A stretch of DNA of 63,900 bases, the filler included, from Nitrospinota bacterium (GTDB taxonomy: Bacteria > JAUXIQ01), in NCBI GenBank assembly GCA_030620925.1. It is 11 parts of 11 records of this genome, joined end to end, with 100 filler letters (N's around TTAATTAATTAA, not from the genome) between each part and the next. Parts side by side here need not be neighbours in the genome. Positions count along the whole stretch, not along the records: positions 12,948 to 15,982 come from JAUXIQ010000371.1; 10 more parts are not named here. One strand, 5' to 3'. A program made the translations under genes and the position numbers. How positions within the stretch are numbered: the first letter of the stretch is position 1; every line of letters starts with the position of its first letter. The notes under the pieces were generated by a model that was given only the letters and a program-made list of their open reading frames with translations, ran no database searches and was not told where the DNA came from. Shown piece by piece: positions 1-63,616 of the stretch.

Positions 1-82
1 AAGGGGTAGGTAGAAAGGAGCGAAATAGCCCTATTTTTGCTCTGTGTGTTGGGAATATTGTTGGGAAGAACCTTTATAGTAT

Positions 83-117
83 AAAACAAAAGGGCTCAGG
101 ATTACTCCTGAGCCCTT
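83..117 (-). terminator. Intrinsic terminator downstream of tRNA-Met
   Basis: Stem AAGGGCTCAGG/CCTGAGCCCTT (90-117) followed on the minus strand by a U-rich tail (TTTGTTTT). Confidence 0.65.
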
Positions 118-126
118 GTTATATGC

Positions 127-203
<77 letters not shown>

Positions 204-218
204 CCGATACAGCGCCTA

Positions 219-247
219 ATAGTATCCTTTAGCGGATGAAAAGTCAA
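219..247 (-). promoter_or_regulatory. Sigma70-type promoter of the tRNA
   Basis: TTGACT-17 nt-TACTAT just upstream of the tRNA. Confidence 0.6.
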
Positions 248-306
248 GCTCCCGCGATTCTTTAATATATATGCAAATTATGTTTAAATCCTTTCACTTA
301 CCGTCT

Positions 307-2000
<1,694 letters not shown>

Positions 2001-2022
2001 CTATTATGCATCCTTTTGTCTT

Positions 2023-3303
2023 TCAGAGCTGTTTGAAGCTTTTACGGCTTACCTCTACTGTCTTTTCCAGGTCCCGGTCAGTGTGGGCGGTGGAAAGGAA
2101 ACCGGCCTCGAACTGCGAGGGCGCAATGTTTATACCTTCATTGAGCATAGAGGTGAAATATTTTGCGAAAAGCTCCGTGTTGGATCCCTTGGCCGAGTCG
2201 TAATCGCTGACTTCCGATTCGTTGAAAAATGTGCAGAACATAGAGCCCACCCGGGTGTGGAAGGTAGGGACGCCCGCCTCGGCGGCTCCGGCCTGAATTT
2301 CGCCGCACAGTTTCGCCGCCCTCTCTTCCAGCGCGGCGTAAGGGGGGTTCTCCTTGAGCTCCAAAAGGGTCTCTATGCCCGCCGTCATGGCCAGCGGGTT
2401 GCCGGAAAGGGTGCCCGCCTGGTATACGGGGCCTGTGGGGGATATCTGCTCCATAATCTCCTTTTTACCCCCATAAGCGCCCACCGGAAGCCCTCCTCCT
2501 ATGATTTTCCCCAGGGCGGTGAGGTCTGGCATTACGCCGTAAAGCTCCTGCGCCCCTCCACGGCCCATCCTGAAGCCGGTTATCACCTCATCAAATATCA
2601 GCAGTGTGCCGGACTTCCGGCACAGCTCCTCAAGCCCCTTCAAAAACCCCTGCACGGGGGGAACCACTCCCATATTGCCCGCAACGGGTTCCAGGATAAT
2701 GCAGGCTATCTCCTCCCCGCGCGTATTCATGAACTCCGAAGCCGCCTCCAGGTTATTATAGGGGAGGGTGATGGTCTTCCCCGCCAGCTCGGGGGGCACA
2801 CCTGGGCTGTCCGGCACTCCGAAGGTGGTTGCTCCCGAACCCGCTTTTACGAGGAGTGAATCAGCGTGTCCGTGATAGCAGCCGGCGAACTTTATTATCT
2901 CGTCCCGTTGGGTATAACCCCTGGCCAGGCGGATGGCGCTCATGGTGGCTTCTGTGCCGGAGCTCACCATTCGCACCATCTCTATGGAAGGCACTGCCTC
3001 CACCACCAGCCGGGCCATCTCCACCTCAAGCTCCGTGGGCGCGCCGTAGCTGGTACCGCGTCCCACGGCCTCCTTCAGGGCTTCCACCACCCGCGGGTGG
3101 GCATGCCCCAGAATCATGGGGCCCCAGGAACAGACGTAGTCTATGTATTCGTTGCCGTCCACATCGTAAATCTTAGACCCCGACGCACTGGAAATGAAAG
3201 GAGGGTCGCCTCCCACCGCACGGAACGCTCTCACGGGGCTGTTCACTCCTCCAGGGATAATCTCTTGTGCAGCCCGAAACAAGCTTTCAGAATTTTTACC
3301 CAT
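2023..3303 (-). CDS. hemL: Glutamate-1-semialdehyde 2,1-aminomutase
   Basis: [45 protein letters not shown]. Confidence 0.97.
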
Positions 3304-3390
3304 TCTCCCCCTCCATACATAAGGGTTATAAAAGGACGTATTTGGGGCAGGTACAACTTATCTCAAAATCGTCGAGAATGCTGTGAAGCT

Positions 3391-4632: not shown

Positions 4633-4848
4633 CCACCGGTGGTGAGAAACACGTATTCTAAATAAATTGCTGCACATCAGAGACGAAAAAGCTTACTTTA
4701 GTAAGAATAATACCTTTAAAATAAAATATTGTTATTTGAATTTTAGGAATTAAAAAGTGTCCAATGCGTCGAAAATATGGTATAAATGGGTATTCAGGAT
4801 TTCGGGCAAGAGATTTTTCGATGTTCCCTCTTAATTCAGACTGATGTT

Positions 4849-6306
4849 ATGAAAATTCCACTCATTTTCGTAAGAGACAAGCGGTATTTTTCGCTACCCT
4901 CCTCAAAGTTCGTCAATCGGAGAGTGAAAAACCCTTACCCGGGCGGTAAGAAGCATTACGTATACGGCGAGCCGCCCCTGGGAATCATGTACCTCTCATC
5001 GATCCTGAAGCAAGCGGGACACGAGGTAACCCTCTCGGATCAGAGCCATCCGGAATATTCGGATGAAAAATTCGTAGAATCGCTCATCAAAGAACGACCA
5101 GATATGGTCGGCATCAGTTTCTTGAGCAACGTGTGCTACCCCGCAGCCTGCAGCCTCTCCAGAAAGATAAAAGCCGCTCTCCCCTCAACCAAGATAGTCT
5201 ACGGCGGGGTATTCTCCACCATCAACGCGGAAAAGATAGTCGCTTCCGAGGCTTCGGTTGACATAGTGGCGAGGGGAGATGGTGAGGGCATCATCCGGGA
5301 CCTGGCGGAAGGTCTCGATAAGCTCGACGACATACCGGGCATAACCTTCAGGTCTGAGGCCGGTGAAGTGGTCGAGACTCCTGATCGTGAAATGATCGAA
5401 GACCTCGATTCGATCCCCTTTCCCGATCGAGAAAGCCTGGACATAAACTATATAGCCTCCCTTCCGCTGACTGCGCCGGCGGTCATCTGGGACCGTCCAT
5501 TCACCACGTTACAATCTTCTCGCGGCTGCCCTTTCGATTGCGTATACTGCAATTGCCCCACTTTCAGCAACAGGAAATGCCGGTTCCGCTCGGCGGAAAA
5601 CGTCTTGAAGGAGATCGACGAGATAGAGCGGGAGGGCTACAGCTCCTTCTGTTTCATCGATGACAACTTTCTCCTTAAAACAGAGAGGGTTGAGGAGATA
5701 TGCGAAGGCATGATCGCCAACCACCATTCATTTAAGTGGGCATGTGAGGGGCGGATCGATCCCCAGGTAAACGGAATTTTCGATAAACTCTCCGCGGCAG
5801 GCTGCGACATGGTCATGTTCGGGATCGAAAGCGGTTCTCAGCGAATTCTGGACAGCATGAAAAAGAGAACGAAGCTCCCCGACATTGCAAAGGGGGTGGC
5901 AAACGCTAAAAAAGCTGGTATCTCCATAATACACGGGTTCTTCATACTGGGATCGGTCGGAGAAACGGTCGAAGAGTTAGAGCGGACATTTACTTTTGCA
6001 GAGCGCCTGAAGATAAACACCTTCGGTTTCAACTCCCTGCTCGCTTTCAGGGGAACATCCCTCTGGGATGAAGCCGTCGCCAGTGGTCTTATTGACGAGG
6101 AGAAACACTGGGATAAGATGTTCGCCATCCATGCTATCCATCCCGATGCCATCGATTCCAAGACGCTCTTCAAGCTCAAGGCTAAATTCGTTAAACGCCT
6201 GATCGTCAAAAAAATTCTGAGAAATCCTCTCGTCGCGGCCAAAATCTTCAAAAGATTTCTGGACAGCATGTCGGTGAGAGACCTTTACCAGCTTCTCAGA
6301 TCTTAG
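4849..6306 (+). CDS. Cobalamin-binding radical SAM protein (class B methylase-like)
   Basis: N-terminal B12-binding domain (PPLGIMYLSS...VYGG), SRGCPFDCVYC CxxxCxxC, FIDDNF, GIESGSQ. Confidence 0.9.
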   Translation: MKIPLIFVRDKRYFSLPSSKFVNRRVKNPYPGGKKHYVYGEPPLGIMYLSSILKQAGHEVTLSDQSHPEYSDEKFVESLIKERPDMVGISFLSNVCYPAACSLSRKIKAALPSTKIVYGGVFSTINAEKIVASEASVDIVARGDGEGIIRDLAEGLDKLDDIPGITFRSEAGEVVETPDREMIEDLDSIPFPDRESLDINYIASLPLTAPAVIWDRPFTTLQSSRGCPFDCVYCNCPTFSNRKCRFRSAENVLKEIDEIEREGYSSFCFIDDNFLLKTERVEEICEGMIANHHSFKWACEGRIDPQVNGIFDKLSAAGCDMVMFGIESGSQRILDSMKKRTKLPDIAKGVANAKKAGISIIHGFFILGSVGETVEELERTFTFAERLKINTFGFNSLLAFRGTSLWDEAVASGLIDEEKHWDKMFAIHAIHPDAIDSKTLFKLKAKFVKRLIVKKILRNPLVAAKIFKRFLDSMSVRDLYQLLRS

Positions 6307-11041: not shown

Positions 11042-11836
11042 ATGGAATTTCAGGACCTGTTATACGAAAAATCGGAAGGCATCGCCCTTATCACCTTGAA
11101 CCGGCCCGAGGCCAGGAACGCGCTGACCCCGGCTATGATCGACAGCCTGGTGGGCGCTTTCCAAGAGTCGGACGGGGATGACGAGGTAAAGGCCATTGTT
11201 ATCACCGGCGCCGGCAAATCCTTCTGCGCGGGGGGAGACGTCAAGGCAATGGGCGATAGGAAGGAGCCCACCCTGGAGGACATAGTCAAGAGTTTCCGCA
11301 ACGGCATACACCGCATCCCCCTGAGCGTCAAAAAAATCGACAAGCCCCTGATAGCCATGGTTAACGGCGCCGCGGTGGGTGCGGGCCTCGACTTCACGCT
11401 CATGTGCGACATCAGAATCGCTTCGGACCAGGCCAAGTTCGGCGAGGTCTTCGTGCGCGTGGGCCTGGCTCCCGGAGACGGGGGCACCTTTTTCCTTCCC
11501 CGAATCGTGGGCATCGCCAAAGCCTGCGAGCTGACGTGGACCGGGGACATCATAGACGCTCAGGAGGCGGAGCGCATCGGCATGGTGAGCAGGGTGGTCC
11601 CCCACGACAAGCTGAAAGAAGAGACGCTGGCTTTCGCCAAAAGGATAGCCTCGGGGCCCTCCATGGCCATCCGCATGGCGAAGCGCTCCATATACGAGGG
11701 GCTGGAAACCAACAGCCTGGAAAATACTTTAGAAAAGCTAGCACACATGCAAGACATACTCATGCGAAGCGATGACCACCAGGAAGGGATCAGGGCGTTC
11801 ATAGAGAAACGCCCGCCGGAGTTCAAAGGCAGATAA
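11042..11836 (+). CDS. Enoyl-CoA hydratase/isomerase (crotonase family)
   Basis: LNRPEARNAL, FCAGGD, VNGAAVGAG, EKRPPEFKGR. Confidence 0.92.
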   Translation: MEFQDLLYEKSEGIALITLNRPEARNALTPAMIDSLVGAFQESDGDDEVKAIVITGAGKSFCAGGDVKAMGDRKEPTLEDIVKSFRNGIHRIPLSVKKIDKPLIAMVNGAAVGAGLDFTLMCDIRIASDQAKFGEVFVRVGLAPGDGGTFFLPRIVGIAKACELTWTGDIIDAQEAERIGMVSRVVPHDKLKEETLAFAKRIASGPSMAIRMAKRSIYEGLETNSLENTLEKLAHMQDILMRSDDHQEGIRAFIEKRPPEFKGR

Positions 11837-12847: not shown

Positions 12848-12949
12848 NNNNNNNNNNNNNNNNNNNNNNNNNNNNNNNNNNNNNNNNNNNNTTAATTAAT
12901 TAANNNNNNNNNNNNNNNNNNNNNNNNNNNNNNNNNNNNNNNNNNNNAA

Positions 12950-13396
12950 TGGTCCCGCGATATAGTTCCGTCTCCTAAAAGGGCTTTATTGGCCGGTGAA
13001 GATACCAGTGCCGCAAAACTCGTAGGGCGAGAAATTAAAGTCAACCGGACAAATACAGCGGGTTTGCTGGAAGTCGATTATAGATGGGATTTTGAAGAAG
13101 ACCCTCCCTCCATGGGCCTGTTTGATCTTATTCTCAGTTATGCAATACTGGAGCACCTTCTGGACCCATATAAACATGTGAGTGATCTGGCGGGTCTATT
13201 GTCCCCTGACGGGTTTCTGATAGTGCATACCGTGTGCCTCGGATTTGATTATCATCGATATCCTATCGATGCGTGTCGGTTTTACCCGGACTGGTTCGAG
13301 GAAATAGCTAAAAAGTTGCGCTTAGCCATAGTTAAAAAAAGGATTAAGGACTCTCACATTTTTTATATGTATCAGAAAACGGATGAGGCCTCGTAA
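12950..13396 (+). CDS. Class I SAM-dependent methyltransferase domain protein (5' truncated)
   Basis: FDLILSYAILEHLLDP...LLSPDG, YHRYPIDACRF; frame open to the contig edge. Confidence 0.75.
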   Translation, partial: WSRDIVPSPKRALLAGEDTSAAKLVGREIKVNRTNTAGLLEVDYRWDFEEDPPSMGLFDLILSYAILEHLLDPYKHVSDLAGLLSPDGFLIVHTVCLGFDYHRYPIDACRFYPDWFEEIAKKLRLAIVKKRIKDSHIFYMYQKTDEAS

Positions 13397-13454
13397 GAGA
13401 AAAAGGGTAAAAGAACCCCTTGACGAGCCGTGATGTTCGTTTTGCTGTTCCGCC

Positions 13455-15110
13455 TCAGAAGGGGCAGTCGATGGTGTGCATGATGTCGTAGGGGTAGCCG
13501 TAGGCCATGCGGATGAACCCTGCGATTTCCCCCGAGGTGGCGCCGGCTTGAAGCGCACTTAAGACCTGTTCGGTGAGGTTGACGTCTTCCCTGGAGGCGG
13601 CTTCCCCTAATTTATTCAGCTCCCGTTTAACCGATTCACTGTGGCGAGAGCTGCGGAGCTCGCGCAGGTTGTCCAGGTGTCTCTCCACCTCGCCCTCAGG
13701 AAGCTGGAAGGACTCCACGGGCTGGCCCTCGTCCGATTCGTCGTTGTATGCGTTGACTCCCACGATGACCCGTTCCCCGTTCTCTACCTTCTGCTGCTGC
13801 TGGAAGGAGAGCTGCCGGAGCCTGTCTTCTATCCACCCGCTGCACATGGCCTTTAATTGCCCATCCTGCTCCTCGACCTGTTTTATGATTTCGCGGGCCT
13901 TCTCTTCGAGCTTATCGGTCAGCTCTTCGATGTAGTAAGACCCTCCCAGGGGATCGACAACGTTGGTGACCCCGCTCTCGTGTGCGATGATCTGCTGGGT
14001 GCGCAGCGCCAGGCGCTGGGCTTCGGCGGTGGGGATGTCTATGCCTTCATCATAGGAGCAGGTCTGTAGGGACTGCGTGCCGCCTATGACCGCGGCCAGG
14101 GCCTCGACGGCAACGCGCACCACGTTGTTCAGCGGCTGCTGGTGCTGGAGGGATTCTCCGGCGGTATTGGTGTGGTATTTGAGCCGGCCCAGGCGGGGGT
14201 CTTCAGCGCCGTACTTTTCCCTGATGATGCCGGCCCATACCCGGCGGGCGGCGCGGAACTTGGCTATCTCCTCGAAAAAATCCATCCCGCAGGAGTAGGT
14301 AAAGCTGAATCGCGGAGCTATCTGCTCTATGCTCAAACCTCGCTCCAGCAGTATGTCTATATAAGCTTGCGCTTCGGTGAAGCTGATGGCTATTTCGTGT
14401 GCGGCATCGCCGCCGCTCTCCCGCGTGGCGTAGCCGTTTACGTTTATGGGGTTCCATAAGGGCAGATTCCTGTAGGCATACTCGTTGTGGTCCATGTAAA
14501 GGCGGAGGCGCCAGGGAATCTCCTGATAGTAGAGGGCGCGGGGGCCGTAAACGCATCCCGCCAGGCCCGGGGTGTTGATGGAAGTCCCCCTGAGAGACTC
14601 CAAGGGTATGCCCTTCTGACGCGCCACCCCCACGTAGGCGGGAAGGCTGATAACGGCGTTGAAGGTAAGCATGAAGCTGACCTTATCCATGGGGATACCT
14701 TCGGTGAGGGCCTCCATGTCCCGGTAGGAGCATACGGGCACGCCCTGGGCACCCACCACGCCTTCTGCAAGGGGGTGATCGGAATCGATGCAGACGTTGG
14801 TGGGGAAATCGCCGATGGCGTTCAACGCCGAAGCTCCTTCCTGCACCAGTGCCTTGAGGCGCAGGTTGGTGGCTTCCGGTGAGGCATAGCCGCAAATTTC
14901 CCGCTTGCTCCAGTAGCGCCCCTGGAACATATCGGCGTAGACGCCGCGGGTATAGGGGTAGCTGCCCGGATCGCCCAGCTTCTGATTGTAATCGGGCGGC
15001 GGCGCATTTTCGGGGGTGTAGACTTTTTTGAGCGGTATGCCGGAAAGGGTGGTATTCCCTTCCGTCCTGGCGAAGTATGCCTCGTCGATCTTATCGATTT
15101 TTTGTCCCAT
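13455..15110 (-). CDS. Adenosylcobalamin-dependent acyl-CoA mutase, large (substrate-binding) subunit, divergent
   Basis: PGSYPYTRG, FFEEIAKFRAARR, LALRTQQIIAHESG, DPLGGSYY, VGVN; no fused B12-binding domain. Confidence 0.9.
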   Translation of the reverse strand: MGQKIDKIDEAYFARTEGNTTLSGIPLKKVYTPENAPPPDYNQKLGDPGSYPYTRGVYADMFQGRYWSKREICGYASPEATNLRLKALVQEGASALNAIGDFPTNVCIDSDHPLAEGVVGAQGVPVCSYRDMEALTEGIPMDKVSFMLTFNAVISLPAYVGVARQKGIPLESLRGTSINTPGLAGCVYGPRALYYQEIPWRLRLYMDHNEYAYRNLPLWNPINVNGYATRESGGDAAHEIAISFTEAQAYIDILLERGLSIEQIAPRFSFTYSCGMDFFEEIAKFRAARRVWAGIIREKYGAEDPRLGRLKYHTNTAGESLQHQQPLNNVVRVAVEALAAVIGGTQSLQTCSYDEGIDIPTAEAQRLALRTQQIIAHESGVTNVVDPLGGSYYIEELTDKLEEKAREIIKQVEEQDGQLKAMCSGWIEDRLRQLSFQQQQKVENGERVIVGVNAYNDESDEGQPVESFQLPEGEVERHLDNLRELRSSRHSESVKRELNKLGEAASREDVNLTEQVLSALQAGATSGEIAGFIRMAYGYPYDIMHTIDCPF

Positions 15111-15178
15111 GCTCCCTCTCCATGGATTGAAGCAAGAAAATGAGTCCTTTATCCGTTGGCCGAACCGGGCCGATTTTT

Positions 15179-15982
15179 TTAGAACGGGTAATCCAGCACT
15201 TCGAAAACGTCGTAAGTGTCTCCGTGGGCCATGCGTACCGCCCCCGTGGCCTCACCGGCCGTGGCGCCTGCTTTTGCGGCGTCCATATAGTATTCGGTGA
15301 GGTTCTCGCCGGTGCGGCCTGCGGCTTCGCCCAGGCGTTCCACCTGGCGTTTCACCTCTTTTTCGTCTCGCGTCTCGCGCAGCTTTCGCAGGCTTTCCAG
15401 GTGGTGTTCGACTTCATCCATGGGAACCTGGAAAGGCTCAATGGGTCGCTCCTCTTCCGGCTCGTCGTTGTAAGCGTTAGTGCCCACCAGTATGCGCTCG
15501 CCGCTCTCTATATCGCGCTGCACCTTGAGCGAAACTTCCCTCACCTTCTGCGATACCCAGCCCTTCTGGATGGCGGGGATGTAGCCGCCCTTTTCATCTA
15601 TGGTAGCAATGAACTCGCGCATATCTTCTTCGAGCTTGTCGGTGAGGTTTTCGATGAAGTAGGAGCCGCCCAGGGGGTCCACCACGTTGGTGATTCCGCT
15701 CTCGTGGGCGATGATCTGCTGGGTGCGCAGCGCCAGGCGCTGGGCATCCGGAGTGGGGATGTCTATGCCTTCATCGTAGGAGCAGGTCTGAAGGGATTGG
15801 GTGCCTCCGATGACGGCAGCCAGGGCTTCTATGGCCACTCGGATGACGTTGTTCATGGGCTGGGCGTGCTGAAGCGATTCGCCCGCAGTGTTGGTGTGGT
15901 ATTTAAGCCTGTAGCTTTTTTCTTCCTTGGGGTTGTAACGTTCCTTTATCAGGTTGGCCCATAACCGGCGGGCGGCGCGGAA
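15179..15982 (-). CDS. Second acyl-CoA mutase large subunit paralogue (5' truncated)
   Basis: Frame open to the contig edge: FRAARRLWA...KYHTNTAGESLQ...GGTQSLQTCSYDEG...DPLGGSY. Confidence 0.88.
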   Translation of the reverse strand, partial: FRAARRLWANLIKERYNPKEEKSYRLKYHTNTAGESLQHAQPMNNVIRVAIEALAAVIGGTQSLQTCSYDEGIDIPTPDAQRLALRTQQIIAHESGITNVVDPLGGSYFIENLTDKLEEDMREFIATIDEKGGYIPAIQKGWVSQKVREVSLKVQRDIESGERILVGTNAYNDEPEEERPIEPFQVPMDEVEHHLESLRKLRETRDEKEVKRQVERLGEAAGRTGENLTEYYMDAAKAGATAGEATGAVRMAHGDTYDVFEVLDYPF

Positions 15983-16300: not shown

Positions 16301-16525
16301 TCGCGCCTGTCCCGCGTACCACGGGACTACGGAATTAAATTTTGTAAGAGTGGCAACCCGCGGCGCGCGGGACGCCCCTGCACCACCTAATGTCATTCTG
16401 AACGTAGTTCCGCGGTACGCGGGACTCAGAATGACCGTTTTTACGGGTGCTGAACATCCGCTGCTTTTCGCAGACCGCCCATTATACCCTTCACTGTAGT
16501 CCCGCGGTACGCGGGACAGGCGCGA
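16301..16525. repeat. REPIN/MITE-like unit bounded by 30-bp inverted repeats
   Basis: 16301-16330 is the reverse complement of 16496-16525 (29/30); internal GTCATTCTGA...TCAGAATGAC hairpin. Confidence 0.7.
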
Positions 16526-26925: not shown

Positions 26926-27714
26926 CTACCGGCCCTGAAATTCGGGAGGCCGCTTTTCAAGAAAGGCCGTGAGCCCCTCCTTGACGTCCTCGCTGGCGTA
27001 GACCTGCTTGACCATCTCGTCCACGTCTGAAGAGTCTATCTGTTTCTGCGGGCTGAGGCACTTATGCACCATCTTCTTGAACCCGCGGACTGACAGCGGG
27101 GCGTTCTGAGCTATCTCCCCGGCTATTTGCATAGTGGTCTCATGCAATTGGTCGTGAGGCACCAGGTAGTTTACGAGACCGATTTCGAGGGCCTTGCCGG
27201 CATCGAAGATTCTCCCCGTGAAGAGCAGTTCCTTGGTGTACATGATTCCCATGGCGTTGACCAGCCGCTGCACCAGGCCGTAATTGAGTAGTATGCCCCT
27301 TTTTGCCAGGGGCATGCCGAAGTGGGCTCTTTCCGAAGCGATTCGTATGTCACAATTCACCGCCAGCTCGCAGCCTCCGGCCAGGGCGTAACCGTTGACC
27401 ATGGCGATGACCGGATTCGGAAAGTCGATGATGCTGTCCAGGGCACCTTCCACATATGAAGCGTCGCTGCCCCGCTCGGCCCTCTCCTCCTGTGTCTTCA
27501 GGATTTCGGCCATATCCGCCCCGGATGAGAAAGCCTTATCGCCCGCGCCGGTAACGACAGCCACCCTTATGTCCTCATCTCCGGCCATGGATTGCATTAT
27601 GTCCGCAAGCTCGACCCACATGGCTGTATTGAACGCATTTCGCTGTGCAGGGCGGTTTATGGTGATGGTACAAATGTGTGCATCCTTTTCGATAAGGAAA
27701 TTTTCCTCCGCCAT
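26926..27714 (-). CDS. Enoyl-CoA hydratase/isomerase (crotonase family)
   Basis: INRPAQRNA, FSSGAD, NGYALAGGCELA, EKRPPEFQGR. Confidence 0.92.
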   Translation of the reverse strand: MAEENFLIEKDAHICTITINRPAQRNAFNTAMWVELADIMQSMAGDEDIRVAVVTGAGDKAFSSGADMAEILKTQEERAERGSDASYVEGALDSIIDFPNPVIAMVNGYALAGGCELAVNCDIRIASERAHFGMPLAKRGILLNYGLVQRLVNAMGIMYTKELLFTGRIFDAGKALEIGLVNYLVPHDQLHETTMQIAGEIAQNAPLSVRGFKKMVHKCLSPQKQIDSSDVDEMVKQVYASEDVKEGLTAFLEKRPPEFQGR

Positions 27715-51893: not shown

Positions 51894-53036
51894 TTATGGC
51901 ATGAGGAGGGCCTTGGCGATTACGCCTCGCTGGATCTGGTTGGTGCCCTCGTAAATCTGCAGCAGCTTGGCGTCTCGCATCAGTTTTTCCACGGGGTATT
52001 CTTTCATGTACCCGTATCCGCCGAAAACCTGCACGGCATCTGTGGTGATGCGCATGGCAATATCGGATGCGAAAGCTTTGCTAATGGCCGATTCCTTGCT
52101 CTGTCGCATGCCCTGGTCGGCCATCCACGCGGCCTGCCAGCAAAGGAGGCGGGCGGCTTCAACGTCTTTGGCCATGTCGGCCAGAAGGAACTGGATTGCC
52201 TGGTTCATGGCGATGGGCATGCCGAACTGGATTCTTTCCAGGGAATACTTCGTGGACTCCTCCAACGCTCTCCTGGCGACGCCTACCGCCAGTGCCCCCA
52301 CCGAGGGACGGGTGCGGTCCAGGGTCATCATGGCTATTTTGAACCCGTCACCTTCGTTCCATAGCAGGTTGGCCGCGGGCACCCTCACGTCCTCGAAGAT
52401 GACCTCCGAGGTGTCCGAGGCGCGCTGGCCCATCTTGTCTTCCCGCTTGCCCTTGCTTATGCCGGGCATTTCTCCATTGAGGATGAAGGTGCTTAAACCC
52501 TTGTGGCCCTTCTCCTTGTCAGTGGAGACGAAGACGGAGAACAGGTTGGCGACTCCACCGTTGGTTATGAAGCATTTCCGGCCGTTGATGATGTAGTCGT
52601 CGCCGTCCTTAACCGCCTTGTTCGTTATGCCCGACGCGTCCGAACCGGCTTCCGGCTCCGTGAGGCAGAAGGCGGCCATCTGAAATTCGGAGCAGAGCGC
52701 GCCCAGGTGCTTTTTCTTCTGCTCCTCGGTTCCCGCTATTATGATGGGCATAATCGCCAGGTCGTTGGCGAAGAGGGCGGTGGCTATCCCCGCGCATCCG
52801 AAGCCGAACTCCTCGGCCAGTACGCAGCTTTCCAGGGTCGAAAGCCCGCCTCCTCCAAATTCTTCCGGCGCTTCGGCGTTGAGCAGCCCCAGGTCGAAGA
52901 CCTTGCGGGCGATATCCCAGGGGTAATCCTCCGTCCTGTCGTATTCCGCTGCGACAGGTATTATCTCCTTTTCGACGAATTGGCGCACCACGCGCTGCAG
53001 TTCCTTTTGTTCCTCTGTTAGGGCGAAATCAACCAA
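51894..53036 (-). CDS. Acyl-CoA dehydrogenase (butyryl-CoA dehydrogenase-like)
   Basis: CLTEPEAGSD, NGRKCFITNG, DKMG.R, QVFGGYGY, QIYEGTNQIQR. Confidence 0.95.
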   Translation of the reverse strand: MVDFALTEEQKELQRVVRQFVEKEIIPVAAEYDRTEDYPWDIARKVFDLGLLNAEAPEEFGGGGLSTLESCVLAEEFGFGCAGIATALFANDLAIMPIIIAGTEEQKKKHLGALCSEFQMAAFCLTEPEAGSDASGITNKAVKDGDDYIINGRKCFITNGGVANLFSVFVSTDKEKGHKGLSTFILNGEMPGISKGKREDKMGQRASDTSEVIFEDVRVPAANLLWNEGDGFKIAMMTLDRTRPSVGALAVGVARRALEESTKYSLERIQFGMPIAMNQAIQFLLADMAKDVEAARLLCWQAAWMADQGMRQSKESAISKAFASDIAMRITTDAVQVFGGYGYMKEYPVEKLMRDAKLLQIYEGTNQIQRGVIAKALLMP

Positions 53037-55897: not shown

Positions 55898-56410
55898 GGC
55901 TCGCTCCCTTTGAAATTGACACATTATCTGCTTCCTGGCGTAGGGCCGATTATCAGGCCACCCGCGTGAAATCTGTTCAGAATATATGCGAGAAATGAGA
56001 AATTTGTCAAGAGTATAAGGATATCTTCCGATTAGTATATAAAGACGTTTAAACTGTATTGAGACCCGATGATAAATTTAACTGCTTAACTAATTCAAAT
56101 GCTTATGACCTCAAAAGGTCTTTGAGACATTTTAAATTGAAATTTTCGGAGCGGAATTACGTCAAACTATATGGAGGGCTTTTATGGAGCATTATGGTAT
56201 AATTAGGAAGAATTGAAGAATATTTGGGCTAAAAGCTACGTATATGCTGTTTGGTTGGTTTGAAGAAGAGGCGGGAGGGTAATATATTTAAAAACAATGG
56301 GGACGAGAAGAGTCCTTGATTTTGAAATGGGCAGAAAAAAAATAAAAAAAAGGGCAATTCTAAACGGAATTTGTCTGAAGCTGCCTTGTACGCTGAGGAG
56401 GTGAGTGGTA

Positions 56411-58312
56411 GTGAGTATTTTCAAAAGAATAGAGGAACATCAAGATAAGCTGGACACTACTCCCTGGGAAGGAACATTCAAGGAATACCTTTCCGTGGTT
56501 ATAGAACAACCCAACCTGGCGTGGCTTGCCCATCAGCGGATTTATAATATGGTGAGATCATACGGGGTGGAAACGGATGAAGATGGCAAGGAGTACTTCG
56601 AGTTTTATAAGAAAGAACTGTTCGGCGTGGATGATTCCATTACCAGTGTTATGGAATATCTTAAGGGAGCCAGCCTGGGCTCAGACGTAGGTAAGCGTAT
56701 ACTGATGCTCTACGGCCCCCCTTCATCCGGGAAAAGCCAGTTGGTCATACTGTTAAAGAGAGGCATAGAGGAATTCACACGCACCGAGGAAGGAGCCGTT
56801 TACGCCATCGCCGACTGCCCGCAGCACGAGAACCCGCTGCACCTCATTCCCTTTTCGCTGCGCAAGGATTTCCTGGACGAGCATGGGGTAAAAATAGAAG
56901 GAGAGCTTTGCCCCATCTGTTCCCTTAACCTGAAGGAAAAATACGAGAACGATATCTACCGGGTGCCAGTAAAAAGAATTTTCTTCTCAGAAAAGGAGAG
57001 AGTGGGCATAGGTACCTTTGTGCCCTCCGACCCTAAATCCCAGGATATTTCCGAGCTGGTGGGAAGCATCGACCTCTCTACCGTGGGCGAATACGGCTCT
57101 GAGTCCGACCCCAGGGCATATCGCTTTGATGGCGAGCTCAACGTGGCCAACAGGGGGATGATAGAGTTCATAGAAATGCTCAAGGCGGACGAGCGGTTTC
57201 TCTATATACTTCTCACCCTTTGCCAGGAGAAGAACATCAAGACCGGGCGGTTCCCGCTTATTTACGCCGACGAGATGGTCATCGCCCATACCAACGAGGC
57301 GGAGTTCAACGAGTTTATTGCGGACAAAAGGTCCGAGGCCCTTCGTGACAGGATGATCATCGTTCGTATGCGCTATAACCTTGGGGTTTCTGATGAGGTA
57401 AGGATTTATAAGAAACTCCTCAAGCAGGCGCAGGTGGAAGATGTGCATATCGCTCCGCATACCCTGGAGGTCGCTTCCATGTTCGCCATCCTCTCCAGGC
57501 TGGAGGAGCCAAAGATGGCGGGCCTCACCCTGGTGAAGAAGATGAAGCTTTATAACGGCGAGGAGGTGGAAGGTTTTCGCCAGAAGGACCTCAAACAGAT
57601 AAAGGAACAGACCGAGCGGGAGGGGATGGACGGTGTATCGCCTCGTTTCATCATCAACAGGATGACCTCCACCCTTACCAGGGCGGAGGTGAGCTGCGTT
57701 ACCCCTATCGACGCCCTGCGCACGATAAAGGACGGCTTCGAGAGCCACGCCCAGTTAAAGAAGGAGAGCCAGGAAAACTTCAATAACCTCATCGCCGAAG
57801 TCAGGAAGGAATACGACGAAATCGCCAAAGTGGATGTGCAGAAAGCCTTCTTCATCTCTTTCGAAGATGAGGCGATGACTTTGTTGAACAACTACCTGGA
57901 CAACATCGAAGCCTACCTCGACGACCGCAAGCTGCCTGATCCCATAACCGGCGAGGAAGTGGAACCTGAAGAGAGGCTCATGCGGTCTATTGAGGAGAAG
58001 GTCAAGGTTCCCGAGAGCGGCAAGGACGCTTTCCGCAACGAGGTGCTGCGCAAAGTCGCCGTGGCCCAACGAAAGGGGGAATGCTTCGATTACACCACCC
58101 ATGAAAAGCTGAAAGAGGCCATAGAAAAGCAGCTTTTCGATGAGCGAAGAGATACCATAAAGCTCACCGTTTCCTCAAGGAACCCCGATCCCGAGCAGCT
58201 ACGCAAGGTGAACGAGGTCGTCAATACCCTGGTAGAGCGGGAGGGTTACTGCACCCACTGCGCCAATGAGCTTCTCAAATACGTGAGCAGCCTTATGGCC
58301 AGGGAGAAATAG
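56411..58312 (+). CDS. prkA: PrkA/YeaG AAA+ serine protein kinase
   Basis: GPPSSGKS, DPKSQDI, ESDPRAYRFDGELNVANRG, HTNE. Confidence 0.95.
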   Translation: MSIFKRIEEHQDKLDTTPWEGTFKEYLSVVIEQPNLAWLAHQRIYNMVRSYGVETDEDGKEYFEFYKKELFGVDDSITSVMEYLKGASLGSDVGKRILMLYGPPSSGKSQLVILLKRGIEEFTRTEEGAVYAIADCPQHENPLHLIPFSLRKDFLDEHGVKIEGELCPICSLNLKEKYENDIYRVPVKRIFFSEKERVGIGTFVPSDPKSQDISELVGSIDLSTVGEYGSESDPRAYRFDGELNVANRGMIEFIEMLKADERFLYILLTLCQEKNIKTGRFPLIYADEMVIAHTNEAEFNEFIADKRSEALRDRMIIVRMRYNLGVSDEVRIYKKLLKQAQVEDVHIAPHTLEVASMFAILSRLEEPKMAGLTLVKKMKLYNGEEVEGFRQKDLKQIKEQTEREGMDGVSPRFIINRMTSTLTRAEVSCVTPIDALRTIKDGFESHAQLKKESQENFNNLIAEVRKEYDEIAKVDVQKAFFISFEDEAMTLLNNYLDNIEAYLDDRKLPDPITGEEVEPEERLMRSIEEKVKVPESGKDAFRNEVLRKVAVAQRKGECFDYTTHEKLKEAIEKQLFDERRDTIKLTVSSRNPDPEQLRKVNEVVNTLVEREGYCTHCANELLKYVSSLMAREK

Positions 58313-59481
58313 TGAAGATAGCAATGATGGAACAGGCCTTTCCATGGGATTTGAGGAGGAGGGGCCTGAAAGACAGCATACGGCACGACCACCGGGTCCG
58401 TGAAGCGGTAAAGAAAAACCTGAAAGAGCTCGTCGGGCGGGAGGAGATCATCACCTCCGACGGGAAGAAAAAAGTGAAGATACCGCTTCAATACCTGGAT
58501 CAGTACCGGTTTAAGTACGGTCGGCCGGGGGAAGGCGTGGGCCAGGGTGAGGGCGAGCCCGGCGACGTCATCGGCAAGGAAGGCCAGGAGCAGTTTTCAG
58601 GCGAGGGGCAGGCCGGAGATATGCCCGGCGAGAACGTCTATGAAGCGGAGTTCACCCTGGAAGAGATCACCAAGATGATGCTGGAAGATCTGGACCTCCC
58701 CTGGCTTGAAGAGAAAGACGAAAAACAGCAGAAGACCTCAAGCTATTCCTACGACGAGGTACGCACCAAGGGCATATTGCCCAACCTGGATAAACGCAGG
58801 ACCCTCTATCAGAGCTTGAAGCGCAGCGCGGCGAAAGGGCGCGGAAAAATAGTTAGAATTGTGGATGATGACCTCCGCTACAAAGTATGGAGGGAGAGGG
58901 AGCAGTACCAGTCTAGCGCCGCGGTATACCTGCTCATGGACCGCAGCGGCTCTATGACCACCGACAAAAAGTACATCGCCAAGAGCTTCTTCTTCTGGCT
59001 TGTGCGTTTTCTCAACCTCAAATATCAGAATGTGGACCTGGTGTTCATCGCGCATGACACCGAAGCCCAGGTGGTGGAAGAGAAGGATTTCTTCACCATT
59101 AGCAACAGCGGGGGCACCAAGTGTTCTTCGGCTTACGGGTTGGCTCTGGAGCACATAGTCTCCACCCATCCAAGGGATAAGTGGAATAACTACGTCTTCC
59201 ACTTCTCAGATGGCGATAACTGGGCCGAAGACAACCAGTACTGCAAGGAGGCCGTGCAAGAGCTGCTCCAGCATACCTCCATGCTGGGCTACGGCGAGAT
59301 CAAGTATCGGGATGAGGCCACCTTCTACGGCTGGGGCCGCCCCTTTGATACCTCCTGGAGCACCCTGCACCAGGAGTTTAATAACATAGAACATCCACAT
59401 TTCATCACGGTGACCATCAAGCAAAAAGAAGACGTGTACGAGGCGTTAAAGGAGTTCCTGAGCAGGAAGGAAGAACAGTGA
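58312..59481 (+). CDS. yeaH: YeaH/YhbH (DUF444) vWA protein
   Basis: Gly-rich linker, MDRSGSM MIDAS, SGGT..SSA, FHFSDGDNW. Confidence 0.93.
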   Translation: MKIAMMEQAFPWDLRRRGLKDSIRHDHRVREAVKKNLKELVGREEIITSDGKKKVKIPLQYLDQYRFKYGRPGEGVGQGEGEPGDVIGKEGQEQFSGEGQAGDMPGENVYEAEFTLEEITKMMLEDLDLPWLEEKDEKQQKTSSYSYDEVRTKGILPNLDKRRTLYQSLKRSAAKGRGKIVRIVDDDLRYKVWREREQYQSSAAVYLLMDRSGSMTTDKKYIAKSFFFWLVRFLNLKYQNVDLVFIAHDTEAQVVEEKDFFTISNSGGTKCSSAYGLALEHIVSTHPRDKWNNYVFHFSDGDNWAEDNQYCKEAVQELLQHTSMLGYGEIKYRDEATFYGWGRPFDTSWSTLHQEFNNIEHPHFITVTIKQKEDVYEALKEFLSRKEEQ

Positions 59482-60908
59482 GCCTGGAGAGGTTCGAAGA
59501 GATAAAAAAGGTTGCCGTGGAGCTGGGGCTGGACTTTTTCGATATCTATTTCGATACCGTTCCTCTGGACATCATGGCCGAGATAGCCGCTTACGGGCTC
59601 CCCACCCGACCCCAGCACTGGTCCTACGGGAAAGTCTACAACCGTTATCGGGTACACGGCCGCATGGGGCTCTCCAAAATCTACGAGATAGTTTTGAATA
59701 ATGACCCCTGCTACGCCTTCCTTCTGGATACCAATATTGAGATAGAGAACCTCCTGGTTGCCGCCCACGTTTATGCCCATTGCGATTTTTTCAAGCACAA
59801 CGTGGTGTTCAAAGATACCGACAGGAACATGGTCAACGAAGCCGTGCAGCACGCCATCCGGGTGGACGAGTATATAGAAAAATACGGGCTGGAGCGGGTG
59901 GAGAAGGTTATGGATATAGCATTCTCCGTGGATAAACATATAGACTTTCACAAGAAGCTCTACCGCAGGAAGTACCCCCCCCGTCAGGTAGTTGAGAAAG
60001 AGGTCAAGACTGACGAGTATGCCGACCTCTTCGGCGAGGAATCGTTATCGGTGGTGGAGGAGGTGGTCGGGGATAAGCTGCCCCCCCATGCGGAGAAGGA
60101 CTTACTCTGGTTCATGGCCAACTACGCCCCCATAGAGCCCTGGGAAAAAGATATTCTGGATATGGTGCGCGAGGAGAGCTTCTATTTCCTGCCTCAGTTC
60201 GAGACTAAAATACTCAACGAGGGTTGGGCCAGCTACTGGCATGCCGAGATACTGAACAGGTATGCGAGCCTCACTCCGGCGGAGACCATCGACTTCGCTT
60301 CGCTGCACGCCTCAGTGGTGCATCCGGGAGGCATGGGGTCCATCAACCCTTATTATCTGGGTTATAAACTACTGATAGATATTGAGAAGCGTTGGGATGA
60401 GATGTACCGCAATGGAGAGTCGGCAATTGACGGCCGGACCAAGCTTTTTAAAGTGCGCGAGGAGGAGAACGACTTTTCATTCATCTCCAATTACCTCACT
60501 GTGGAACTGGCCGAGGAGCTTCAACTGTTTACCTACGGCTACTCCTGCTCACATTCCCAGGGGGGTAAAGGCAAGTGCAGCCGGTGCGGTGAACTGGAGA
60601 TAAAGAGTCGCGACCTGGACCAGGTGGTCCAGAGCCTCATCGCCTCTAAATCCAACTACGGAGTTCCCAGGGTGACCATCACCGAGGTTAAGAACGGCGA
60701 GCTTTACATGCAGCAGGACCCCATGGAGCTCGGCGGTCTGGACAAGAAATATGCGGATAAGACCATCGAATATATCTACAAGCTCTGGAAACAGCCGGTC
60801 CATATCAAGACCGTCGACGAGAATGGAAACGAGGTGCAGCTCACCTGCTGCGACAACGGCCAGATGGTCTCCAAGAACAACAACGAGCAAAACGAAGGCA
60901 CCGAATAG
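59478..60908 (+). CDS. spoVR: SpoVR/YcgB family protein
   Basis: HWSYGK, IYEIVLN, AHV.AHCDFFK.N, TKILNEGWASYWH, NPY.LG. Confidence 0.94.
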   Translation: MSLERFEEIKKVAVELGLDFFDIYFDTVPLDIMAEIAAYGLPTRPQHWSYGKVYNRYRVHGRMGLSKIYEIVLNNDPCYAFLLDTNIEIENLLVAAHVYAHCDFFKHNVVFKDTDRNMVNEAVQHAIRVDEYIEKYGLERVEKVMDIAFSVDKHIDFHKKLYRRKYPPRQVVEKEVKTDEYADLFGEESLSVVEEVVGDKLPPHAEKDLLWFMANYAPIEPWEKDILDMVREESFYFLPQFETKILNEGWASYWHAEILNRYASLTPAETIDFASLHASVVHPGGMGSINPYYLGYKLLIDIEKRWDEMYRNGESAIDGRTKLFKVREEENDFSFISNYLTVELAEELQLFTYGYSCSHSQGGKGKCSRCGELEIKSRDLDQVVQSLIASKSNYGVPRVTITEVKNGELYMQQDPMELGGLDKKYADKTIEYIYKLWKQPVHIKTVDENGNEVQLTCCDNGQMVSKNNNEQNEGTE

Positions 60909-61651: not shown

Positions 61652-63616
61652 ATGCAGGGTTATGGTAATATTTTGCGTATAGACCTTTCCAGCGGGAACG
61701 TTAGCGAGCAGACTATCGAGCCGGAGCTGGCGGAGAGGTTCCTGGGCGGGGTGGGCATAAACGACTGGCTGCTGTGGGAACATTTCACCGCCGTCGACCC
61801 CAGGATCGACCCACTGGGGCCGGAAAACGTAATAATCATGGGTCTCGGCCCCCTTGGCGGCACGGCCACGGGCCTGGGCAGCAAGATGAAGTTTACCTTC
61901 AAGGGGCCGTTGTGCAACATGTTCGGCGACAGCGTGAGCGGAGGCAGCTTCGGGCCCATGTTGCGCTATGCAGGGTATGACCACCTGGTCATCACCGGCC
62001 GCGCGGAGAGGCCGGTCTATATCTGGATAGACGACGGCAGGGTGGAGATAAGGGACGCCTCATCCCTGTGGGGGAAGGGAGTACACGAGGCCACAGAGAC
62101 GATCCGGTCTGAGTTGGGCGACGCCGACGTCGCAGTGGCCTGCATCGGCCAGGGCGGGGAGAACCTGGTGCGCTACGCTTCGGTGACCGTCACCGAGGAA
62201 CGTTCCGCCGGCCGCACCGGTGCCGGCTGCGTGATGGGCTCCAAGAACCTGAAGGCGGTGGCCGCGAGGGGGAGCAAAGGCGTCGGCGTGCACGACCCCG
62301 CGGCCTTCATGGAGGCCGTGGACGATTTTTACCTCCGTCTGCGCAGCGACCCGTCGGAGTCTGACTTCCGCAAGAACGGTACCCTGAGGGCGGTGAACTT
62401 CTACGACAGGATTTATGGCAACGCTTTCCGCAACGGCCAGTACTCCAAGGTGCCCGATCAGAAGGTCAAGCTGCTCAAGGCTGAGTGGTTCATCGACAAT
62501 CTCAAGACTCAAGACATGGCCTGCTCCGTAGGCTGCACCGTGGGATGCTGCCACCTGTGCGAGATCAAGGGAGACGAATCCCCCGCAGCGGCTCGATTCG
62601 CCGGAGAGAGGGGCGATGGTCCGGAATACCTCACCGTGGCTTCTTTCGGAATGGGCTGCGACCTGCCGGACATGGCGGCAGTCACCCACCTGCACCACGT
62701 GTGCAACGACTACGGCGTGGACCTTGTGGAGATGGGCGGCATAATCTCTTTCCTGATGGAGCTCTGGGAGCGGGGGATAATAGACGAAAACGATTCGCAG
62801 CGCTGGCTGGGCCGTCCCCTTTCACTTGAATGGGGGAGCCTGGAGGCTGTGGAGGCCGTCATCCGCTCCATCGCCCTGCAGGAAAACGACCTGGGGAGGC
62901 TCTTTCAGAACGGCCTGCTCCCCGCGGCGCAGTCCATTACCGAGGATAAAGATTTTCCCGTAGAACAATATGCCGTCTACGGTAAGGGAGGCATCACCCT
63001 GCCCGAGGAGATAAGGTCTTATCCCATCTGGGCCATAAACTTCGCCGTGGCTTCCCGCGGGTGCGACCACCTGAAGGGCTATAACGTCATAGACAAGGCA
63101 TTCCGTACGGACATTTCCGAAGCGTGGTTGGGCAAGCCGGGTGCGGGCGTGGGCTACGTGCCCGACCTCAAGGGGGCGGCATCGGCTCACGCCGAGAACT
63201 ACACCGCCGCCGTGAACACCCTCGGCGTCTGCGTTTTCCGCACCGCCCGAGACCCGATGAACATTTCTCTGGACGTCCTGGCCGGGGCCTATCGCGCCCT
63301 CACCGGCCTGGAGATAAGCGGCGGGGAGATGTATACCATCGGGGAGCGGGTCTATAACCTGGAGAAAGCCTTTAACTCCAGGGTGGGACTCCGCAGGGAG
63401 GACGACCGCCTCTGCCGGCGATGGATGGAAGAGCCCGTTACCGGAGGACCCGGTAAGGGCATGAAGGCGGGAGACTATTTCCATGAGCTCCTCGATGAAT
63501 ACTACCTGCATAAAGGCTGGGACGTGAAGACCTCTCTACAAACTCGCCGGAAGCTCATGGAGCTGGGGTTGGAGGATGTCGTCGCCGTCCTTGAAAAAGA
63601 GGACGCCGTAGTCTGA
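61652..63616 (+). CDS. Aldehyde:ferredoxin oxidoreductase family (tungsten enzyme)
   Basis: FLGG.G, DPLGPEN, AGRTG.G.VMGSKNLKA, C..C...C, RGCDH, D.L..R, YY..GW. Confidence 0.93.
   Translation: MQGYGNILRIDLSSGNVSEQTIEPELAERFLGGVGINDWLLWEHFTAVDPRIDPLGPENVIIMGLGPLGGTATGLGSKMKFTFKGPLCNMFGDSVSGGSFGPMLRYAGYDHLVITGRAERPVYIWIDDGRVEIRDASSLWGKGVHEATETIRSELGDADVAVACIGQGGENLVRYASVTVTEERSAGRTGAGCVMGSKNLKAVAARGSKGVGVHDPAAFMEAVDDFYLRLRSDPSESDFRKNGTLRAVNFYDRIYGNAFRNGQYSKVPDQKVKLLKAEWFIDNLKTQDMACSVGCTVGCCHLCEIKGDESPAAARFAGERGDGPEYLTVASFGMGCDLPDMAAVTHLHHVCNDYGVDLVEMGGIISFLMELWERGIIDENDSQRWLGRPLSLEWGSLEAVEAVIRSIALQENDLGRLFQNGLLPAAQSITEDKDFPVEQYAVYGKGGITLPEEIRSYPIWAINFAVASRGCDHLKGYNVIDKAFRTDISEAWLGKPGAGVGYVPDLKGAASAHAENYTAAVNTLGVCVFRTARDPMNISLDVLAGAYRALTGLEISGGEMYTIGERVYNLEKAFNSRVGLRREDDRLCRRWMEEPVTGGPGKGMKAGDYFHELLDEYYLHKGWDVKTSLQTRRKLMELGLEDVVAVLEKEDAVV

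Follow-up and report, generated by a model that had tools for sequence, protein, structure and literature searches.

The 63.9-kb stretch of DNA considered here, referred to below as the window, is made up of 11 short contigs, with N linkers between them, of one metagenome-assembled genome (MAG) of a Nitrospinota bacterium (G000; 2.5 Mb, 445 contigs, 89% complete). One of these contigs (C262, 3035 bp, window 12948–15982) carries in tandem two paralogous genes for the large, substrate-binding subunit of an acyl-CoA mutase, of which copy 1 (product P0001) is complete and copy 2 (P0002) runs off the end of the contig. Together they represent a rare, conserved and selected branch of the family in which most of the recognised specificity and catalytic positions have been replaced. 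We regard it as probable, if some way short of assured, that both genes encode functional adenosylcobalamin (AdoCbl)-dependent mutase large subunits of new specificity, served in trans by a separately encoded small subunit.

Family membership and fold

Copy 1 matches the Pfam mutase family PF01642 over profile positions 2–512 of 512 (E = 1.4e-158; 529 bits against a cut-off of 22.1), and the part of copy 2 that lies in the window, 62% identical to copy 1, matches positions 264–510 (E = 3.9e-88). The Pfam scan found no B12-binding domain fused to either, and the first-pass annotation, made from the DNA sequence alone, was thus right to describe two co-oriented large subunits lacking this domain. 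Among the NCBIfam models the sole one to pass for copy 1 is the subfamily-domain model TIGR00641 (486.5 bits against 303.8), and no equivalog does: the scores are 405 against 876 for the methylmalonyl-CoA mutase (MCM) equivalog NF006944, a model which covers the fused form; 216 against 1500 for the IcmF equivalog NF045497; and 163 against 617 for TIGR00642, which describes the MutA β-subunit. The 24 other paralogue pieces in the same genome gave the same four generic models and zero equivalogs, and NCBIfam does not discriminate among split mutases.

The AF2 model of copy 1 (pLDDT 85.8, pTM 0.90) is predicted to have the (β/α)8 barrel plus linker of the catalytic α chains. In sequence (E = 9.4e-111) as in fold, the best match among solved structures is HcmA, from the 2-hydroxyisobutyryl-CoA mutase (HCM) of Aquincola tertiaricarbonis (PDB 4r3u, chain A; Foldseek TM score 0.88, 35% identity), followed in fold by MCM α chains (0.83–0.87), with which the pair shares family, fold and barrel-plus-linker length (human 2xij; P. 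shermanii 1req), then by IcmF (0.77–0.79) and by MCM β chains (0.60–0.66, at 20–22% identity). Of 46 positions conserved to at least 95% in an 80-row alignment of canonical and non-canonical sequences, 45 are unchanged in P0001, among them the neighbours of the Tyr-243 equivalent, Asp354/Glu355, Arg286 and Arg289. The low TIGR00642 score and the low similarity to β chains argue that the pair are not β-type subunits, and with the core residues retained the identity of an inactive MutA β-subunit was rejected. The first-pass annotation had allowed for inactive β-type proteins having no partner small subunit; the α-like scores, and the presence of partner subunits elsewhere in the genome (see below), speak otherwise.

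Replacements in the active site

Motifs were mapped on HMMER alignments of copy 1 with HCM (4r3u_A), human MCM and P. shermanii MCM (1e1c_A, which is H244A, and 5req_A, which is Y89F). Tyr89, Gln197 and His244 lie in the substrate pocket of MCM, with Arg207 as carboxylate ligand and Tyr89 as the second such ligand; His244 is the general acid, retained, as far as is known, in the characterised mutases, and Asn366 normally lines the adenosyl/substrate cavity. In copy 1, Tyr89 has become Ile72, Gln197 Ile178, His244 Ala228, Gln330 Asn315 and Asn366 Cys351, the last of these within SLQTC in place of SLHTN; Tyr243, His328 and Glu370 are retained as Tyr227, His313 and Glu355, as are the CoA-channel motifs PxTRG and WxxR of the MCM α chains. 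The loop that follows GT(V/I)Q exceeds that of known mutases by 2–3 residues, and the model is less confident there. HTNT and SLQTC are present in copy 2 too. Its N-terminal motifs cannot be read in the window, and were taken from the full-length protein P0005, which is near-identical to copy 2 (99% over 267 columns), and from the G001 orthologue; G001 and G000 together make up the only two species genomes of this GTDB phylum in the searched collection. These motifs are WSSREICGY, LNAIGDFAT and NVNGYV; Val occupies the His244 position, and Pro takes the place of Arg191 of copy 1. Across orthologues of 56–84% identity the pocket motifs WS[KS]REICGY, NVNGY[ASV], H[TV]NTAG and SLQTCS are constant, and, the Arg207 position apart (see below), each departure from the known specificity motifs that had been listed for the complete copy was confirmed by alignment to the HCM and MCM structures.

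Known identities were tried for copy 1 and rejected. MCM (EC 5.4.99.2) fails at the positions of Tyr89, Gln197 and His244. In isobutyryl-CoA mutase (ICM), IcmF and pivalyl-CoA mutase (PCM) the Tyr89 position holds Phe (or Leu) and that of Arg207 holds Gln, and His244 is retained, where copy 1 has Ile72, Arg191 or Val187, and Ala228; the IcmF score given above is likewise far under its cut-off. The HCM signature combines an Ile at the position of Tyr89 with Asp117, the residue that binds the substrate hydroxyl; Ile72 fits, but Asp117 is replaced by Ile99. The likeness to HCM extends to the split architecture, which in HCM goes with a separate small B12 subunit, but the pair differs from it further in that the His of SGYH is Ala in copy 1 and Val in copy 2, HCQT has become HTNT and SLHTN has become SLQTC, the loop after GT(V/I)Q is unrelated in sequence, and there is no adjacent small-subunit gene.

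The residue corresponding to Arg207 depends on the alignment: under HMMER it stands opposite Arg191 of copy 1, as does the corresponding Gln of HCM, and under MAFFT opposite Val187, four residues earlier. Arg191 is present in all four copy-1-type sequences and replaced in all four of copy-2 type. The earlier proposal of a non-carboxylated substrate is not supported, since copy 1 and its three orthologues keep an Arg at or within four residues of the Arg207 position, and the accompanying suggestion that the substrate is bulky would follow from smaller side chains only. A substituted succinyl- or malonyl-CoA mutase, with a carboxylated and possibly bulky substrate whose carboxylate would be bound, in copy 1 at least, by Arg191 (compare ethylmalonyl-CoA mutase and IaaGH), is an unlikely solution. 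It would be in keeping with the HMMER pairing, with the retention of Arg191 throughout one type, and with the 20 matches in G000 to family-III CoA-transferases (PF02515; for example on C365, C396, C128, C39, C41 and C24), those on C39 and C41 standing directly beside mutase paralogues. Family-III CoA-transferases include succinyl-CoA-dependent transferases for substituted succinates, and in this genome they form a second large expansion, possibly connected with that of the mutases. A precedent for a mutase of a bulky dicarboxylic thioester is IaaGH of Aromatoleum aromaticum, a split B12 mutase whose assigned substrate is a bulky substituted succinyl-CoA (benzylmalonyl-/phenylsuccinyl-CoA) and which is paired with a family-III CoA-transferase (PMC8360864). 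IaaGH exemplifies specificity beyond the five classic mutases, and is likened to the pair here by description only. Several points tell against a carboxylated substrate: the MAFFT pairing with Val187; the replacement by Ile of Tyr89, the second carboxylate ligand of MCM; a VOC gene near the pair in G001 that was considered as a methylmalonyl-CoA epimerase and rejected (32 bits against a cut-off of 115); and the lack of any match in G000, at its 89% completeness, to glycyl-radical fumarate-adding or PFL-like enzymes (PF02901).

The copy-1 and copy-2 types differ, with each residue fixed within its type, at 60 of 522 comparable positions, among them Lys69/Ser, Pro103/Ala, Thr180/Ala, Ala184/Pro, Gly185/Thr, Arg191/Pro and Tyr194/His from the strands and loop of the pocket; on the cofactor side the two types have identical motifs. 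Enrichment of the fixed differences in the pocket windows is not clear (5 of 31 positions in the Gln197–Arg207 loop, against the 60 of 522 overall). As the copies do differ at pocket-loop positions, they would most likely serve two related substrates or combine as an α/α′ heterodimer.

Relatives, phylogeny and selection

Among 5.8 billion clustered proteins, seven clusters besides the window's own reach at least 56% identity. The relatives within the orthogroup, P0003–P0008, are 56–84% identical (P0005 being that of copy 2); beyond these, identity does not exceed 48%. The names of the 120 nearest database proteins say nothing more specific than "methylmalonyl-CoA mutase", its family or its N-terminal domain; plasmid records searched with tblastn gave at most 42% identity and generic names only; and a search for close orthologues and their context in genome and metagenome contigs returned only relatives of 38–46% identity, the peptide patterns used being generic. 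A literature search found no paper on this mutase clade or on a mutase expansion of the kind described below. As far as sequence comparison goes, the pair is therefore a rare orthogroup, claimed by no characterised clade and by no NCBIfam equivalog, which bears out the initial view that it stands outside the characterised mutases: TIGR00641 alone passes, and the best solved relative is HCM at 35%.

At greater distance the pair belongs, by its motifs, to a very large superclade of stand-alone large subunits, itself unnamed, with Cys at the Asn366 position and no His at that of His244. Cys occupies the former in 118 of the 120 nearest proteins, and the latter is Asp in 91, Asn in 11, Ser in 10, Val in 4, Ala in 2 and His in 2. 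Superclade members come mostly from MAGs labelled Desulfobacteria, Thermodesulfobacteriota or Pseudomonadota. The orthogroup of the pair is 42–48% identical to the rest of the superclade, and its signature (Ile, Tyr-Ala/Val, His-x-Asn, Gln-x-Cys) is rare there, in contrast to the dominant one (Val/Ile, Tyr-Asp, Gly/Ala-x-His, His-x-Cys). A FastTree phylogeny was built from 80 rows, comprising those paralogues from G000 and G001 that reach 260 aa, P0003–P0008, every fifth sequence of P0009–P0121, and nine named-genome loci. There the pair is part of a clade of 10 rows (support 100), itself nested in a non-canonical clade of 47 rows (support 98), which is separate from a 33-row clade holding the MCM- and ICM-like sequences. 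Within the 10-row clade the copy-1-type sequences (G000, G001, P0003 and P0004) and those of copy-2 type (G000, P0005, G001 and P0008) are sister groups, with P0006 and P0007 outside.

G000 is a bacterial genome, since a search for ribosomal S8e gave none. G001 carries the same tandem pair in the same order, spread over contigs C400 and C475, which have overlapping end sequences. Each type having a member in both genomes, and the tandem order being the same, the duplication is evidently old and has been kept. Between G000 and G001 the ratio of non-synonymous to synonymous substitution rates (dN/dS, Nei–Gojobori) is 0.09 for copy 1 over 526 codons, with dS (1.47) close to saturation, and over 178 codons of the C-terminal part of copy 2 it is 0.17; by this measure both copies are under purifying selection. 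Conservation, selection and fold together make the pattern of working enzymes, not that of decaying or β-type subunits. That the pair might be non-catalytic or degenerate paralogues, whether structural or regulatory partners like the MutA β-subunit or genes in decay, is accordingly quite improbable. Such a role would agree with the replacement of His244, Gln197 and Gln330 alike and with the lack of an adjoining small subunit, and it has a model in the tandem α/β pairs of P. shermanii and M. tuberculosis (MutAB; PDB 1req and 6oxc), which share with the present pair the tandem arrangement of two homologous mutase genes and provide a precedent for a paralogous heterodimer. In MutA/MutB, however, one chain is a degenerate, cofactor-free β-subunit, whereas the two copies here are 62% identical, are both constrained and have the same AdoCbl-side motifs, so that neither looks degenerate. 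Moreover, a Cys at 366 and a missing His at 244 that are common to 118 of 120 nearest proteins are not a pattern of decay, and the near-complete set of family-wide conserved residues, the β-subunit score far under its cut-off and the lower similarity of fold to β chains all point the same way.

An expanded family of mutase large subunits

A context absent from the first-pass annotation is that the pair are two of some 22–24 paralogues. G000 has 26 matches to PF01642, which after merging of split pieces correspond to about 22–24 distinct large-subunit genes (on C39, C97, C118, C122, C154, C176, C197, C226, C259, C282, C311, C319, C330, C353, C363, C374, C398, C439 and others) with widely different residues at the pocket positions. 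Most are scattered single genes, and only five have an adjoining small B12 subunit. G001 has 24 matches, and most of the full-length G000 paralogues have a one-to-one partner there, which implies that the expansion is older than the split of the two genera. In a first-look count, for which four candidates per genome were scored and in which fragmentation inflates the figures for both MAGs, G000 had 26 candidates and G001 29, against a maximum of 14, and mostly 0–4, in 299 other sampled bacterial genomes.

The same census bears on whether the pair might be an ordinary mutase of known specificity (MCM, ICM, HCM, PCM or ethylmalonyl-CoA mutase, ECM) that has diverged along with a deep lineage. 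In a phylum with two species-level genomes high divergence is to be expected of every protein, but G000 also has an ICM-type gene on C197 and an MCM-type gene (C176/C4) that bears the Tyr/His/Gln/Asn signature and has OAD_beta and a biotin carrier as neighbours. Canonical copies in the same genome mean that the divergence is not lineage-wide. At the specificity positions, moreover, the pair departs from the signatures that MCM and HCM show in the alignments, and from that of ICM, and the explanation is hardly credible.

The ICM-type gene (L005, C197:773–2454; Phe at the Tyr89 and Gln at the Arg207 position) is read as two adjacent open reading frames, 773–1249 and 1255–2454; a frameshift, a stop codon or an assembly error may account for the split. 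On C118 (L010, positions 1–3317) another mutase paralogue lies between a homologue of the 2-hydroxyglutaryl-CoA dehydratase D-component and an Old-Yellow-Enzyme-type flavoprotein, a setting which points to 2-hydroxyacyl-CoA chemistry near that member of the family.

Partners and gene neighbourhood

No small subunit adjoins the pair in either G000 or G001. In G000 the gene order downstream is a terminator-like site and a convergent gene, and in G001 a PanE/ApbA-family reductase and a generic VOC protein lie upstream. The search of the genome for a small subunit and the chaperone MeaB, which had been proposed at the outset, did find them: G000 has seven stand-alone B12-binding small subunits, five adjoining other large subunits and two (C13:335–736 and C253:3848–4252) not, together with one MeaB and two PduO-type adenosyltransferases (Cob_adeno_trans), and G001 has at least 12 small subunits. 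It is possible, on the strength of this gene content, that copies 1 and 2 pair in trans with a separately encoded small subunit.

The reductase in G001 (L041, C400:743–1640; TIGR00745, 166 bits against a cut-off of 141) immediately precedes copy 2, in the same orientation. A paralogue of it (63–66% identical) directly follows another mutase and its small subunit in both genomes (L123, G000 C122:7351–8331; L245, G001 C76:4260–5243), the reductases being 63–78% identical among themselves; there, PrpD-like and MaoC/HadA-like genes precede the run of mutase, small subunit and reductase. The link between reductase and mutase thus recurs, and it suggests a scheme in which the pair would be a 2-hydroxyacyl-CoA mutase like HCM or Lcm: the reductase would convert a 2-oxo acid into a 2-hydroxy acid, which after activation with CoA would undergo a thioester shift to give a 3-hydroxyacyl-CoA for β-oxidation. 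HCM is, besides, the best relative in both sequence and fold, and shares the Ile at the Tyr89 position. Even so, we think this scheme rather unlikely for the pair: Asp117 of HCM is Ile99 in copy 1, the reductase adjoins the pair in one genome only (the G000 contig ends at that point), and the two mutase types that stand beside reductase paralogues are not close relatives in the tree.

Layout of the locus and other features of the window

The features of contig C262 are collected in Table 1. On the minus strand the order is copy 2, a short spacer, copy 1, a terminator-like hairpin and then a convergent methyltransferase-like fragment. Copy 2 is open at its 5′ end, where the contig stops at 15982, and its shortness is due to the contig end and not to biology. 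Immediately 5′ of the ATG of copy 1 is the purine-rich GGAGAGGGAG (minus strand), and the two copies probably form one transcription unit. The consensus scan for terminators gave 6 sites against 3.9 expected, by which measure the hairpin is weak taken alone; following copy 1 as it does, it makes copy 1 probably the last gene of the unit, and there is no small-subunit gene 3′ of it. The methyltransferase-like fragment lies outside the mutase system and marks its downstream border.

Table 1. Features of the contig that carries the mutase pair (window coordinates)
Feature	Position	Strand	Basis
Methyltransferase-like fragment at contig start, convergent	12989..13396	+	Weak Pfam Methyltransf_23/11 matches; weak NCBIfam matches only
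Terminator-like hairpin, 34 nt past the copy 1 stop	13402..13421	-	Consensus scan
Copy 1 (P0001), complete acyl-CoA mutase large (substrate-binding) subunit, 551 aa	13455..15110	-	Translation, Pfam PF01642
Spacer of 68 bp, copy 2 stop to copy 1 start	15111..15178	-	Sequence
Copy 2 (P0002), C-terminal 267 aa of paralogous large subunit	15179..15982	-	Translation, Pfam PF01642

The junction between the copies is spanned by contigs of two other public sequencing runs (X1, 14034–15647; X2, 14851–15595) and this, with the occurrence of the same pair in G001, establishes that the tandem order is real and not an artefact of assembly. Public contigs aligned to the window show depth spikes over conserved mutase motifs (13968–14375 and 15600–15803), and one such contig links 15735 back to 14242, equivalent places in the two copies; paralogous conserved segments of this kind are probably the cause of the assembly breaks near these genes. 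Near-identical sequence occurs in 20 rows of public runs from 11 studies, of which 12 rows (8 studies) are labelled sediment, marine or cold-seep, one soil, and seven carry no label; none of the runs listed is an RNA run. Contigs from four of these runs are mostly at least 95% identical over long pieces.

The crotonases (11042–11833 and 26929–27714), acyl-CoA dehydrogenase (51897–53036) and AOR (61652–63613) that the first-pass annotation had brought into play are real genes, but all are on contigs unlinked to C262 and are uninformative as to the pair. Among other cobalamin clients, the window holds a B12-binding radical SAM protein (4786–6303; PF02310 and PF04055), and elsewhere in G000 C43 carries a MetH-like protein and C90 a corrinoid protein together with an MtaA-like methyltransferase. 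At 16301–16525, on contig C263, is a cluster of GC-rich palindromic repeats with the core GTCCCGCGTACC(A/G)CGGGAC, including a 30-nt inverted pair that is 97% complementary; four typed variants of the core gave 5 matches on 3 G000 contigs, and by sequence the repeat looks like a repetitive extragenic palindromic (REP)-type element. A PrkA kinase, DUF444 and SpoVR-like gene triad occupies 56405–60905, an ordinary instance of a widespread conserved cluster.

Proposed function and implications

Our preferred interpretation is that each large subunit would hold an acyl-CoA within its (β/α)8 barrel and associate with a B12-binding small subunit that has a gene of its own, measures about 135 aa and is loaded by MeaB and a PduO-type adenosyltransferase, and that the CoA-thioester group would be moved to a neighbouring carbon by the usual radical 1,2-shift. 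Because the pocket has been rebuilt, the substrate would be none of methylmalonyl-, isobutyryl-, 2-hydroxyisobutyryl- or pivalyl-CoA. The pair itself arose by an old tandem duplication, and its members differ at pocket-loop positions. The analysis shows the family, the fold, the conservation, the selection and the rarity of the pair, the upkeep of its tandem order and the presence of accessory genes; catalytic activity, dependence on B12, pairing in trans and a new specificity are inferred.

Certain observations weigh against this interpretation. The active-site loops are the parts of the model with lowest confidence (pLDDT about 75 for residues 181–190, 62–73 for 311–330 and below 50 for 355–358). 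There is no adjacent small subunit, pairing in trans being assumed, and the large subunits (about 22–24) outnumber the seven small subunits found in the 89%-complete genome. The superclade contains no characterised enzyme from which an activity could be carried over to the pair, and the replacement of His244 would be compatible with an inactive protein or with a role other than that of a mutase. Finally, the tree is a sample of rows lacking an experimentally characterised member, its canonical clades being recognised by their motifs.

To our knowledge only a handful of acyl-CoA mutase specificities have been described, namely MCM, ICM/IcmF, ECM, HCM/RCM, PCM, IaaGH and Lcm. Each of them has given access to a pathway or to a biotechnological means of moving carbon skeletons. 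What stands out in the present system is how rare the orthogroup is, and how large a family of paralogues occurs in a phylum of two genomes. It is tempting, though we hold it only tentatively and would sooner bet against it, to suggest that this deep-branching lineage of marine sediments runs a combinatorial B12 rearrangement metabolism, in which some 22–24 substrate-specific large subunits share a smaller pool of small subunits, one MeaB and two adenosyltransferases and act together with some 20 family-III CoA-transferases or racemases, so that organic acids with branched, quaternary or dicarboxylic structures become fit for anoxic β-oxidation; the pair would then carry out an undescribed rearrangement without the general acid His244 and with Cys at the Asn366 position. 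Whatever the individual reactions, G000 constitutes a natural library of more than 20 pocket variants with one-to-one orthologues in a sister genus. If the enzymes are active, they would widen the reaction scope of B12-dependent mutases, would demonstrate catalysis without His244, and would help to account for the degradation by marine-sediment anaerobes of branched acids or of acids otherwise blocked for β-oxidation. If the large subunits truly share small subunits, this would be a new organisational principle for the mutase family.

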